Assembly: GCA_038087875.1 (NCBI GenBank)
Contig: CM075991.1
Coordinates: 14,076,001-14,140,000, forward strand
Reading direction: 5' to 3'
Source of the DNA: Malacoraja senta
Lineage: Eukaryota
DNA: 64,000 bases
Position 1 is the first letter of the stretch. Each line of letters opens with the position of its first letter. This document shows, one piece after another, positions 1-52,194 of the stretch. The position numbers and the translations under genes were made by a program. The notes under the pieces were generated by a model. That model was not told the DNA's origin and did no database searches. It worked only from the letters and a program-made list of their open reading frames with translations.

Positions 1-588
1 AGCAGTCGTTCCAGGTGCGACAGAGGTTCACCTGCATCTCCTCCAACCTCATCTATTGCATTCGCTGCTCTAGATGTCAGCTGATCTACATCGGTGAGAC
101 CAAGCGGAGGCTTGGCGATCGTTTCGCCGAACACCTCCGGTCGGTCCGCAATAACCAACCTGACCTCCCGGTGGCTCAGCACTTCAACTCCCCCTCCCAT
201 TCCGTATCTGACCTTGCTGTCCTGGGTCCCGTCCATGGCCACAGCGAGCAACAGCATAAATTGGAGGAAATGCACCTCATATTCCGCTTGGGCAGTCTAC
301 ATCCTGGGGGCTTGAACATTGAATTCTCCCAATTCTGCTAGCCCTTGCTGTCCCCTCCCCTTCATCAGCCCTCTGGTTGTCTCCTCCCCTCCCCCAGCCC
401 TCGGGCTCCTCCTCCGCCTTTTTCCTTTTTTCCTTTCTTCCCCCCACCCCCTATCAGTCTGAAGAAGGGTTTCGGCCTGAAACGTTGCCTATTTCCTTCG
501 CTCCATAGATGCTGCTGCACCCGCTGAGTTTCTCCAGCATTTTTGTGTACCTTCGATTTTCCAGCATCTGCAGTTCCTTCTTTAACAC
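1..588 (+). mobile_element. Penelope-like element (PLE) 3' part: GIY-YIG endonuclease C-terminus plus pLTR and tail, inserted in the ERV 3' LTR
   Basis: ORF 15..341 reads NLIYCIRC..C..IYIGETKRRLGDRFAEH...GLN, the GIY-YIG pattern of PLEs. It is followed by the terminal sequence ending ...gcagttccttctttaacac and is nearly identical to 45904-46455. Confidence 0.93.
459..486 (+). ncRNA. Minimal type I hammerhead ribozyme core in PLE terminus
   Basis: CTGAAGA-a-gggt ttcg gcct-GAAACGTT: CUGANGA box, stem II, GAAA and a palindromic ACGT stem III. Confidence 0.65.
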
Positions 589-3500
589 ATAGTCTGTTCG
601 GTGGTTAGTCCAAGGATTGCAAGTTTTGCTCACACCCACATGAGTCTGCAGTATTTGTTATCAGTTACCCCCATACGAGGCAGTATTTCAGTTTTCAGCT
701 ACACCTGGGCTGGAATGGAACCAATGTCCTTGGGGGAGTGTTTGCCAGTGCTGTCGGGGAGGATTTAAACTAATGTGGCAGGGGGATGGGAGCATGAGTA
801 GAGAGACAGAGGGGTGTAAAATTAGGGTAGAAGCAATAGGTAGCAAGGTGAAAAGTAAAAGTGGCAGGCAGACAAATCCAGGGCAAAAATCAAAAAGGGC
901 CACTTTTCAACATAATTGTATAAGTGGTAAGAGTGTTGTAAAAACCAGCCTGAAGGCTTTGTGTCTCAATGCAAGGAGCATTCGTAATAAGGTGGATGAG
1001 TTGAATGTGCAGATAGCTATTAATGACTATGATATAGTTGGGATCATGGAGACATGGCTCCAGGGTGACCAAGGCTGGGAGCTGAACATCCAGGGATATT
1101 CAATATTCAGGAGGGATAGACAGAAAGGAAACGGAGGTGGGGTAGCGTTGCTAGTTAGAGAGGAGATTAATGCAATAGAAAGGAAGGACATTAGCTTGGA
1201 GGATGTGGAATCCATATGGGTAGAGCTACGAAACACTAAGGGGCAGAAAACGCTAGTGGGTGTTGTGTACAGGCCACCTAACAGTAGTAGTGAAGTTGGG
1301 GATGGCATCAAACAGGAAATTAGAAATGCGTGCAACAAAGGTAAAACAGTTATAATGGGTGACTTCAATCTACATATAGATTGGGTGAATCAAATTGGCA
1401 GGGGTGCTGCGGAAGAGGATTTCTTGGAATGTATGCGGGATAGTTTTCTAAACCAACATGTAGAGGAACCAACGAGAGAGCAGGCTATTCTAGACTGGGT
1501 ATTGAGTAATGAGGAAGGGTTAGTTAGCAGTCTTGTTGTGCGTGGCCCCTTGGGCAAGTGACCATAATATGGTTGAGTTCTTCATTAGGATGGAGAGTGA
1601 CATTGTTAATTCAGAAACAAGGGTTCTGAAATTAAAGAATGGTAACTTTGAGGGTATGAGACGTGAATTGGCCAAGATAGACTGGCAATTGATTCTTAAA
1701 GGGTTGACGGTGGATATGCAATGGAAGGCATTTAAAGACTGCATGGATGAACTACAACAATTGTTCATCCCAGTTTGGCAAAAGAATAAATCAGGGAAGG
1801 TAGTGCATCCGTGGATAACAAGGGAAATCAGGGATAGTATCAAAACAAAAGATGAAGCGTACAAATTAGCCAGAAAAAGCAGCCTACCAGAGGACTGGGA
1901 GAAATTCAGAGTCCAGCAGAGGAGGACAAAGGGCTTAATTAGGAAAGAGATAAATAGATTATGAAAGAAAACTGGCAGGAAACATAAAAACTGACTGTAA
2001 TTTTTTTTATAGATCTGTGAAGAGAAAAAGATTAGTTAAAACAAATGTAGGTCCCTTGTAGTCAGAAGCAGATGAATTGATCATGGGGAACAAGGACATG
2101 GCAGACCAATTGAATAACTACTTTGGTTCTCTCTTCACTAAGGAAGACATAAATAATCTGCCGGAAATAGCAGGGGACCGGGGATCAAAGGAGATGGAGG
2201 AACTGAGTGAAATCTAGGTTAGTCGGGAAGTGGTGTTAGGTAAATTGAATGGATTAAAGGCCGATAAATCCCCAGGGCCAGATAGGCTGCATCGCAGAGT
2301 ACTTAAGGAAGTAGCCCCAGAAATAGTGGATGCATTAGTGATAATTTTTCAAAACTCTTTAGATTCTGGAGTAGTTCCTGAAGATTGGAGGGTAGCTAAT
2401 GTAACCCCACTTTTTAAAAAGGGTGGGAGAGAGAAAACGGGGAATTACAGACCAGTTAGTCTAACATCGGTAGTGGGGAAAATGCTAGAGACAGTTATTA
2501 AAGATGGGATAGCAGCACATTTGGAAAGTGGTGAAATCATTGGAGAAAGTCAGCATGGATTTATGAAAGGTAAATCATGTCTGACGAATCTTATAGAATT
2601 TTTCGAGGATGTAACTAGTAGAGTGGATAAGGGAGAACCAGTGGATGTGTTATATCTGGACTTTCAGAAGGCTTTCGACAAGGTCCCACATAAGAGATTA
2701 GTATGCAAACTTAAAGCACACAGTATTGGGGGTTCAGTATTGATGTGGATAGAGAACTGGCTGGCAGACAGGAAGCAAAGAGTAGGAGTAAACGGATCCT
2801 TTTCAGAATGGCAGGCAGTGACTAGTGGGGTACCGCAAGGCTCGGTGCTGGGACCGCAGTTATTTACAATATATATTAATGATTTGGACAAGGGAATTGA
2901 ATGCAACATCTCCAAGTTTGTGGATGACATGAAGCTGGGGGGCAGTGTTAGCTGTGAGGAGGAAGCTAGGAGGCTGCAAGGTAACTTGTATAGGTTGGGT
3001 GAGTGGGCAAATGCATGGCAGATGCAGTATAATGTGGATAAATGTGAGGTTATCCACTTAGGTGGCAAGAACAGGAAAGTAGACTATTATCTGAATGGTG
3101 GCCGATTAGGAAAAGGGGAGATGCAACAAGACCTGGGTGTTATGGTACACCAGTCATTGAAAGTAGGCATGCAGGTGCAGCAGGCAGTGAAGAAAGTGAA
3201 TGGTATGTTAGCATTCATAGCAAAAGGATTTGCGTATAGGAGCAGGGAGGTTCTACTGCAGTTGTACAGGGCCTTGGTGAGACCACACCTGGAGTATTGT
3301 GTATAGTTTTGGTCTCCTAATCTGAGCAAAGACATTCTTGCCATAGAGGGAGTACAGAGAAGGTTCACCAGACTGATTTCTGGCAGGACTTTCATATGAA
3401 GAAAGAGTGGATAGACTCGGCTTGTACTCGCTAGAATTTAGAAGATTGAGGGGGGATCTTATAGAAACTTATAACATTCTTAAGGGGTTGGACAGGCTAG

Positions 3501-49719: not shown

Positions 49720-50205
49720 CCAAGACGGCATGGAATTGCAGAGAGTCCTGGACGCAGCCCAGACCTTCACACAAACCAAAACCCCCCTGCCACTAACTCA
49801 CTTCACACCCCACACTGCCTGGGCAAGGCCAGCAGCATCATCAATGACCAGTCTCACCCGGGCCACTCCCTTTTCTCCCCGCTCCCATCGGGCAAGAGGT
49901 GCAGAAGTGTGAAAACGCACACCTCCAGATTCAGGGACAGTTTCTTCCCAGCTGTTATCAGGCAACTGAACCGTCCTACCAACAATGAGAGAGCGGTCCT
50001 GTACTACTATCTACCTCATTGGAGACCCACGGACTATCTTTAATCGGACTTTATTTGGCACTAAACATTATTCATGTTATTCCCTTTATCATGTATCTAC
50101 ACACTGTGAACGTCTCAATTGTAATTGTATATTGACTTTCCACTGGCTGGTTAGCACGCAACAAAATATTTTCACTGTACCTCGGTACACGTGACAATAA
50201 ACTCA
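49720..50205 (+). mobile_element. Rex1-type LINE 3' fragment
   Basis: Reads CLGKASSIINDQSHPGHSLFSPLPSGKR...RFRDSFFPAVIRQLN, with a gtgacaataaa tail. Confidence 0.85.
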
Positions 50206-52194
50206 AACCCTGGTGGATCTCGTTGAGGTTTGAGTCTGTACCCCTTGGTGTAAGCTGCCCCACAGCCCCACAGCGCACCAGTCCAGAGACCCACAACATG
50301 AGATCTTAGTGTCTTCTATGCCCTTCCACAACAGTAGCATTTGCATGGGAAAGCAACAGTGGCCACTTTCCCAAAGGAGGTTTAACTCCTTTCTTTTGGA
50401 GATACAGCACGGAACAGGCCCTTCGGCCCACCGGGTCTGCACTGACCAGCGATCCCCGCACATTAACACTATCCTAAACACACTAGGGGCATTTTTACAT
50501 TCTCGACCCGAAACGTCACCCATTCCTTCTCTCCATAGATGGCTGCCTCAGCCGCTGAGTTACTCCAGCACTTTGTGTCTACCTTTGTCTTTCTGCTGAC
50601 TGATTAGCAAGCAACAAAAAGCTGTTCACTGTACCCCGATACACGTGACAATAAACTCAATGAGCTGAACTGTGCTGGGCCTGACGCAAGGCCACACTGA
50701 CATTTCCAGTGAAGAGACAAAGTGTTGGAGGAACTGGCAGCATCTGTGGAGGGAAATGGACAGACACTTGGGATGTTCTTGGAGTCGGCAGAAGGGCCCT
50801 GAACTGAATGTGGAAACAAACAACTGCAGATGCTGGTTTACACAAAGGAACGCAAAGTGCTGGAGTAACTCAGCAGGTCAAACTGCATCTCTGGAGAACA
50901 TGGATAGGTGACCCTACCTACTTAGAAGGGTCCTCACCTGAAATGCCACCTGTCCATCTTCTCCAGATATGCTGCCTGACCCGCTGAGTTACTCCAGCAC
51001 TTTGTATTTTGCTGAAAGATTCCTGCATCTGCAGTTTCTTCAGTCTCCACTGACGTTTCTATCCCTGGACACAAAATGCTGGAGTAACTCAGCGGGACGG
51101 GCAGCATCTCCAGAGAGAAGGAATGGGTGACGTCTCGGGTCGCGACCCTTCCTCAGATGGAGTGTCAGGGGCGAGGGAAACTAGAGAAATGGAAGGGTAA
51201 GGTGTGAAAACGACAGATCAAAGCAGACGATGATGAAGGAAAATGTTGAATGGTTCATTGTTGGCTGAGGGGCAGGGGATCACTAGCCTTAGTTCTCCAG
51301 CATATCCTGGGCCCTGTCTGTTCTCTGTTGCTAGTGCCAGGATTGATCTATTTTACTTTGGTGTCCACTAGCCCATCCCGTGGTCCAGTGTGGTCCCCAC
51401 TGCAAGCCTCTCCCTTCTGCCCACTAACATCACCAATATCACCAGGGTCTGAAGAAGGGTTTCGGCCCGAAACGTTGCCTATTTCCTTCGCTCCATAGAT
51501 GCTGCTGCACCCGCTGAGTTTCTCCAGCACTTTTGTCTACCTTCGATTTTCCAGCATCTGCGGTTCCTTCTTAATCACCAATATCATCCCATTTTGTTGA
51601 GCAACACATTAATATCGCTAAAGATAGACACAAAACGCTGGAGTAACTCAGTGGAACAGGCAGCATCTCTGGAGAGAAGGAATGGGTGACATTTCGGGTC
51701 GAGACTGATATCCCTACATTTTGACGACCACACAAACTATGCCGTGTACCCATGTTACACCCTTGTGCCTCGGTTTGTGCCTCTTTCCTTAAATTTGTGC
51801 AACCAAATAGCATAGGAACAGGCCCTTCGGCCCACAATGTCCTTGCTGAGCATGATTCCATGTTAAACTAATCACCCCTGCCTACATGTAATACATATCC
51901 CTCTATTCCCTGCATATCCATAGTCTATCTAAAAGCCATTACAAGCCACTGTTGTATCTCCTTCCACCACCACCCCCGGGAGCACATTCAAGACACCCAC
52001 CAGCCTCCAGGTAAAAAAACTTGACCTGCGTATTTCCTTTCAAGTTTGCCCCTCTCACCTTATTGCTATGCCCTCTGTATTTGACGTGTTCACACTGGGA
52101 AAAAGGTTCTGACTGTCTACCCTGTCAGTGATGAACTGGTTAATTCAAGTGGAAGTTTGATTCAGAAGCAGAGGGCCACACTGGCACTGATTAG

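Follow-up and report, generated by a model that had tools for sequence, protein, structure and literature searches.

The DNA analysed here is a stretch of 64,000 nucleotides from Malacoraja senta (GenBank assembly GCA_038087875.1, contig CM075991.1, positions 14,076,001 to 14,140,000 of the forward strand), referred to below as the window. It contains many copies of a short module that carries the core of a minimal type I hammerhead ribozyme (min-HHR). We consider it highly probable that these are the hammerheads of the pseudo-long terminal repeats (pLTRs) of Neptune-type Penelope-like elements (PLEs), that in the master elements they most likely cut as dimers with the aid of a protein, and that the copies are passive products of retrotransposition. 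The motifs are a further instance of an already described ribozyme class, and most of the window copies are short, dead relics of a PLE-borne hammerhead. Only two points are out of the ordinary: the ribozyme is where most copies end, and one insertion combines two versions of the element. All counts, the covariation analysis and the catalogue of copies refer to the window.

A first-pass annotation of the sequence had counted at least nine cores and given the positions of nine. All nine are present there, although the two minus-strand coordinates, 24896 and 44371, mark the low end of each core, C3 being at 24923 and 44398. A strict pattern (CUGANGA, one or two extra bases, 12 bases, GAAACGU-H) gives 12 matches, 7 on the plus strand (459, 37381, 42209, 46361, 46736, 48736 and 51449) and 5 on the minus strand (18929, 24923, 42052, 44398 and 47214), of which 18929, 42052 and 47214 had been missed. 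The cores are also less uniform than was described: five of the nine (24923, 37381, 46361, 48736 and 51449) are fully canonical and the other four deviate. The core region is spanned by 20 copies, 12 of which have all the catalytic boxes and the NUH intact, and a BLAST catalogue built with seven references from the window finds 48 segments of the end module, of around 130 bases, in the 64 kb. Rather than exactly two subfamilies, more than two variants are present. Module coordinates are counted from C3 = 0, with the predicted cut between +27 and +28. The features are as follows.

3-338, plus: GIY-YIG C-terminus upstream of the 459 core, which lies 118 bases behind it.
459..486, plus: min-HHR core, A type, G10.1-U11.1; the module runs to about 586 with its tail.
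18902..18929, minus: core, B type, in an arm of an inverted unit.
19244..19725, plus: third variant, with a GIY-YIG C-terminus and, downstream of it, a decayed core at 19630.
24794-24925: short insertion with the 24923 core; 14-base target duplication, 13 of 14 matching.
24896..24923, minus: core, canonical, intermediate type.
37381..37408, plus: core, canonical, B type, loop CCCG; module split after +56.
37438-41434: (AT)/(TG) microsatellite of 4 kb, grown inside the 37381 module, which resumes near 41433.
42025..42052, minus: core, older variant, three of four stem II pairs.
42209..42236, plus: core, B type, G10.1-U11.1, in the right arm of the inverted unit 42113-42343.
44271..46456, both strands: 5'-truncated PLE as a head-to-head palindrome, inside a 31-base minisatellite.
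44371..44398, minus: core, A type, G10.1-U11.1, in the left arm of the palindrome.
45378-44518, minus: mirror copy of the C-terminus of the PLE open reading frame (ORF).
45381..46244, plus: C-terminal 287 codons of the PLE ORF, with the end of the reverse transcriptase (RT) thumb, a CX4CxxC linker and a GIY-YIG nuclease.
46361..46388, plus: core, A type, canonical; stop codon 117 bases upstream, a pyrimidine tract ending in CAG directly 5', and the predicted cut after 46388.
46736..46763, plus: core, B type, A-C mismatch in stem II; more than 110 bases of upstream pLTR kept.
47186..47214, minus: core, B type, two extra A.
48736..48763, plus: core, B type, canonical, in an arm of the inverted unit 48680-48830.
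51447..51573, plus: A-type insertion of 127 bases from ribozyme start to tail, with a canonical core at 51449-51476 and a target duplication of 13-15 bases.
55828..56233, minus: B-type element end, with a GIY-YIG C-terminus, a spacer of about 211 bases and a decayed core (C3U) at 55912.
57561-57763: twin of the mixed unit 62782..62984, by a local 354-base duplication.
62782..62984, both strands: mixed inverted unit, A-like left arm (with tail) and B-like right arm; 8-base target duplication.
63550..63782, both strands: A/A inverted unit, both arms starting from stem II (+8); 16-base target duplication, 15 matching.

The published min-HHR is defined by an extra base after position 9, a G10.1-C11.1 pair, a palindromic 15.2-16.2 and folding as a dimer (PMC4209133). 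The window motif resembles it in having CUGANGA plus an extra base, G10.1-C11.1, GAAA, a loopless 15.2-16.2 palindrome and NUH, and its stem II has the 4-bp layout of the Acropora Neptune row in the same source. The extra A that had been noticed after the CUGANGA box (+7, between positions 9 and 10.1) is unpaired and present in 19 of the 20 rows, and is a feature of the published consensus. The palindromic ACGU stem III is likewise confirmed, with A-U in 20/20 rows and C-G in 16/20. The closing pair of helix II (10.1/11.1) is G-C in 14 rows, G-U in 5 and A-U in 1. The G10.1-U11.1 form, seen at 459, 44398 and 42209, is a CpG-type change; at 44379, 79-84% of mapped reads or contigs carry C in the three runs for which the share was computed. 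A cut after GUC or GUU stands as a prediction from the motif, and C-G-U-U ends are found in many rows of the published table of 56 motifs (PMC4209133). An alternative cut, at a GUC overlapping C3, was discarded because helix I cannot form there. As to helix I, the earlier description of a weak stem (2-4 bp) was right: it has two pairs (87.5% of cells paired) and nothing longer by eye. Helices I as short as 2 bp occur in the published table, with G-C pairs there and U-A or U-G here. As in the window, the motifs of PMC4209133 are mostly single, belonging to truncated elements, and opposite-strand pairs lie 100-700 bases apart; the published motifs have low activity. The 56-motif table contains no row from a cartilaginous fish (shark, Callorhinchus and Leucoraja: 0).

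The carrier of the motif is a PLE, as had been proposed. In five places (459, 19630, 44398, 46361 and 55912, both palindrome arms counted) a core lies in sense orientation 117-211 bases downstream of a GIY-YIG end. The B motif is tied to the PLE ORF through 55912 and the third variant through 19630. Homologues of the ORF make up 78 of 871 scored long proteins, the best being a shark protein with 61% identity, and the majority have an RT domain. The nuclease is preceded by a CX4CxxC linker; a CX2-5CxxC linker defines the Neptune and Nematis clades (PMC8557442), and the linker of this ORF points to that group. Endonuclease-bearing Neptune and Nematis elements, as described in PMC8557442 and PMC3846280, share with the window the C-terminal GIY-YIG, the CX4CxxC linker and internal cysteines, 5' truncation, inverted arms with a palindromic junction, a 30-40-base tail on one arm, and insertion in simple repeats. 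There is no full-length PLE in the window, but inverted 5'-truncated arms, the optional 30-40-base tail and target duplications are all found, in line with PLE descriptions in PMC8557442 and PMC3846280. One example is the palindrome at 44271-46456, whose arms of 1076 bases are 99% complementary about a centre at 45379/45380; its tail of about 33 bases is present on the left arm only, so that the arms end at +127 and +94. An ORF start within the module was considered and rejected: A and B differ there by frameshifting indels, and B runs into a stop.

Conservation of the module was compared without m58254, the twin rows 57689/57662 and the left palindrome arm. The excess conservation of the core, whose absence the first-pass annotation would have counted against a ribozyme, is found: at non-CpG cells, 12 of 239 (5.0%) depart from the majority base in the core, as against 270 of 2169 (12.4%) in the downstream module. 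The Fisher p of 3e-4 treats related copies as independent and is indicative only. None of 10 core sites is polymorphic between subfamilies, compared with 20 of 63 downstream (p=0.053). The ribozyme positions that do vary between subfamilies are loop II (+12, +13), +16 (the U-A/U-G pair), H17 at +27 (C/U) and the helix I partner at +28 (A/G); this between-subfamily variation thus falls on tolerated positions only. This pattern suggests selection on the hammerhead fold.

The first unusual point is where the copies stop. We curated 40 5' ends, leaving out the two twin rows and six segments starting past +56, and counting 42948 and 60548, with doubt, as long copies. Six copies begin at +21..+56, 13 at +4..+20, 11 at -9..+1 and 10 farther upstream. 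The ends therefore cluster at the ribozyme, with 24 of 40 in -9..+20 (binomial p 3e-18, again treating related copies as independent and only indicative), while the interval -10..-59 holds no end of the 10 longer copies. By alignment reading, no curated copy starts at +28, the cut site; the RNA templates would therefore have been uncleaved, with copying mostly ended inside the fold. The 3' ends fall at about +92..+94 or +127. Clear target duplications of 13-16 bases are found at 4 of 23 units (24923, 51449, 63550-63782 and 26151-26296); there are 8-9 bases at the twin mixed unit, and none clear, or ambiguous ones, at the remaining units.

Four mapped runs, in which the counts for two contig sets are to be read as at least the value given, bear on the same boundaries. 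Loose read ends with mixed flanks (agreement 0.33) are found at 44400, which is -2, in X15 (122), X21 (448) and X24 (831); for X20 they are absent among the rows listed. Many of the loose ends at 44403-44404 run on into upstream sequence of other subfamilies, and mixed loose ends at +92 are present in all four runs. The -2 boundary would fit if RT stops at the fold, if it is set by the initiator-like TCAGT or by a 3' splice site, or equally if short master copies were the source. RNA depth over the module is about 9-10x that of the best ORF bin, a figure raised by sequences of other subfamilies, which align with the module and not with this ORF. In X21 the reads over the ORF (44493-45379) are mostly biased two- to fourfold toward one first-mate direction; if the library is of the usual stranded kind, this corresponds to antisense RNA of the element, of the kind expected when host transcripts read through its copies.

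The second unusual point is the insertion at 62782-62984. Among 10 independent inverted units (m58254 left out), the arms are mostly of one variant and are often reciprocal best matches. In this unit the left arm is 93% identical to the nearest A copy and the right arm 86% identical to the nearest B copy. The two arms are 82% alike, with six differences each shared with other copies, and are joined in stem II within an 8-base target duplication. A local duplication of 354 bases (57432-57778 and 62647-62999, 93% identical) includes the mixed unit and both flanks, so its copy at 57561-57763 is a local duplicate and the two are counted as one event. Clearly mixed arms are thus seen in 1 of the 10 independent units, old units being too diverged to judge. 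The simplest reading of the sequence would be that two RNA templates contributed to one insertion, though the unit may also have arisen by later insertion into an older copy or by gene conversion of one arm. The large palindrome was considered as further evidence for two templates and set aside, since 7 differences in 1076 positions are insufficient. Arms of two subfamilies in one insertion go unmentioned in the accessible text of PMC8557442 and PMC3846280, and a literature search, judged mostly from listings, gave no match on this PLE family or on mixed-subfamily arms.

Among the closest known systems is PAc, a Poseidon element of Anolis carolinensis (PMC11167929). Its hammerhead lies about 100-130 bases upstream of two RT start sites, as in the window, and these two internal starts define an optional tail; the tail on one arm of the window palindrome is the signature traced in PAc to them. 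The main insertion template of PAc is uncleaved RNA, cleavage requires protein, and RNA-seq ends are absent at the cut site. PAc belongs to a different clade: the CX2-5CxxC linker of the window ORF is absent from Penelope/Poseidon (PMC8557442). The PAc data come from assays, and the window element is known from its sequence. The ends of copies relative to the ribozyme, mapped here, are not mapped in the available part of PMC4209133. Non-LTR retrozymes (bioRxiv 10.64898/2026.07.22.740005), reported from one chondrichthyan genome, are similarly non-autonomous, pLTR-derived and equipped with a type I hammerhead, but consist of head-to-tail tandem ribozyme units, whereas the window copies are single or inverted; none of the 47 tandem-repeat rows in the window is a ribozyme-bearing unit.

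On the basis of these observations we propose the following. The motif is a minimal type I hammerhead in the 3' end module, or pLTR, of several Neptune-type PLE subfamilies, and selection would have retained its fold in the master elements. By analogy with PAc and S. mansoni, cutting after GUC or GUU would most likely require both dimerisation via the ACGU palindrome and an element protein. RT, by the mechanism described in the literature, would initiate internally on the RNA, about 92-94 or 127 bases past C3, pass the uncleaved cut site, and mostly end or switch template in the ribozyme (-9 to +20). The outcome would be inserts of about 95-130 bases, single or head-to-head, and the genomic copies would be passive, decaying products of retrotransposition. 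That the window copies cut host transcripts is unlikely.

Several results weigh against this proposal. The Pfam GIY-YIG match to the ORF has E 3e-4 and 21.4 bits, below the cut-off of 22.6, and the clade assignment derives from the linker motif, the RT core being absent from the window. The covariation claimed for stem II is not borne out: its U-A/U-G pair (15 UA, 4 UG and 1 unpaired in 20 copies) is nowhere changed on both sides, and the covariation score of 0.189 is matched in 43/500 shuffles. Over all pairs there are two two-sided cells, equalled in 67/500 shuffles, a test with little power for 20 closely related copies. The p of 0.053 for constraint at core sites is borderline, and the excess conservation is modest because other parts of the module, +48..+58 and +68..+78, are nearly as conserved as the core (6.5% departures). 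A helix I of 2 bp with U-A or U-G ranks among the weakest of the published table (PMC4209133), and in the A type an alternative hairpin lowers the stem II pair probability to about 0.15. The computed nested active dimer has -4.1 to -5.1 kcal/mol, alike for A:A, B:B and A:B, which is 6.9-7.3 kcal/mol above two monomers; by analogy, such unfavourable energetics would fit protein-assisted cleavage as in PAc. Two poly(A) runs of relatives have no pile-up of RNA ends on the stretch, although weak cleavage may escape such libraries.

Two further observations concern the module RNA. A helix of 8-9 pairs, +47..+55 with +103..+111, is found in all four tail-bearing copies folded (for example 44271-44402, minus strand), and the motif CCAGCA occurs twice in the module, once ahead of each 3' end; together they could be a candidate protein-binding site. 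Splicing to the CAG just 5' of the core is compatible with the sequence but has no read support; there are no RNA joints among the 15 listed, and by eye there is no donor site that would lengthen helix I. In D. virilis an intron ends at helix I (PMC4209133), and several published min-HHR rows have, by eye, a U-rich tract and AG a few bases before helix I. A 3' splice site beside the ribozyme may therefore be wider than the D. virilis case.

Could the hammerhead likeness be accidental? An Rfam search found no hammerhead among 29 window matches with E<=1, the fold z-scores of the copies (-1.86 to +0.51) are not significant, and repeated copies are not independent. We nonetheless regard chance as extremely improbable: the full published descriptor, including features beyond the catalytic boxes, is found at the place and on the strand expected for a PLE, and a looser structural descriptor finds 13 sites, where 100 dinucleotide shuffles (128 kb) give 0.56 on average and never more than 4. 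Those sites are copies of one family (17236 lies outside it) and hence not independent events, so this comparison shows only that the motif is above background. Scans of metagenome and viral contigs with the exact pattern gave 0 matches each. It is more conceivable, though still unlikely, that the hammerhead is a vestige or a structural signal, for RT stopping, template switching or protein binding, and not a nuclease. Such a role would suit the 2-bp helix I, the competing folds, the clustering of copy ends in the fold and away from the cut, the lack of RNA ends at the cut, and the catalytic mutants of PAc that insert in vitro regardless (PMC11167929). On the other hand, the catalytic positions and the NUH are kept in subfamilies that are otherwise about 15-20% divergent, which is beyond the requirement of a pure hairpin signal.

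A third possibility, which we think plausible without favouring it, is that the short copies, instead of being separate truncations of long RNAs, are a SINE-like, non-autonomous family derived from short masters, or run-off products of a transcript starting at about -3/-2 (initiator-like TCAGT). The 11 of 40 copies that begin in -9..+1, mostly with G at -2, are what this would produce, as are the target duplications within 3-16 bases of the boundary at 51449 and 24923 and the loose ends at 44400; another pLTR has an initiator-like TCACT (PMC3846280). But 13 of the 40 begin inside stem II and no variant lacks short copies, as would be expected if the mechanism acted repeatedly; the start in D. 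virilis is well upstream of the ribozyme (PMC2377424), and there is no pile-up of RNA 5' ends, in libraries ill suited to reveal one. The first-pass annotation had raised the idea that, with so many copies, ribozymes within a single intronic transcript could pair among themselves, whereby the host RNA would be cleaved. With 12 intact cores in 51 kb, an ACGU palindrome common to A and B, and an A:B dimer that scores like the homodimers, the idea has points in its favour, but we consider it very improbable. Inspection of long frames by eye, which was not exhaustive, revealed no host exon in the non-repeated segments, and the cores occupy both strands. Even when arranged in tandem, the dimers and trimers of PMC4209133 show weak cutting. 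Moreover, the dimer at about +7 kcal/mol would compete with sense/antisense duplexes between neighbouring copies at -115 and -168 kcal/mol and inverted-unit hairpins at -98 to -189 kcal/mol.

The window has a self-repeated share of at least 48%. A 402-codon frame at 8377-9585 (minus) has PIF1 helicase domains (Pfam E 2.5e-44) and is presumably a fragment of a Helitron-type transposon. LINE-type endonuclease/RT fragments, four stretches of which have Pfam matches, lie at 644-3306, 11780-12501, 15443-16474, 22865-24352 and 59392-60150, an isolated tRNA-Thr(TGT) gene among repeats at 26495-26569 (plus, 70.9 bits), and a gap of 200 N at 30635-30834.

The proposed reading, of pLTR hammerheads with passively inserted copies, extends a known ribozyme class to a Neptune-type family of cartilaginous fish. 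The density is very high (48 module segments in 64 kb), and the relevance is chiefly to repeat annotation. The role of the hammerhead in PLEs and the origin of their inverted insertions are open questions in the literature as far as the sources cover them. As a speculative and rather improbable extension, the fold may itself shape the insertions: a dimeric protein-RNA particle with two element RNAs would prime both target strands, and the cDNAs would stop in the uncleaved ribozyme and anneal through stem II, the RNAs possibly being joined via their hammerhead palindromes and sometimes of different subfamilies. A two-template origin would fit the PAc dimer, which is predicted to nick and extend both strands. 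If true, ribozyme-shaped insertion would explain head-to-head PLEs, 5' ends at the core and the mixed arms of 62782-62984. The mapping of ends and the mixed arms allow the uncleaved and two-template origin of these insertions to be tested computationally across the genome.

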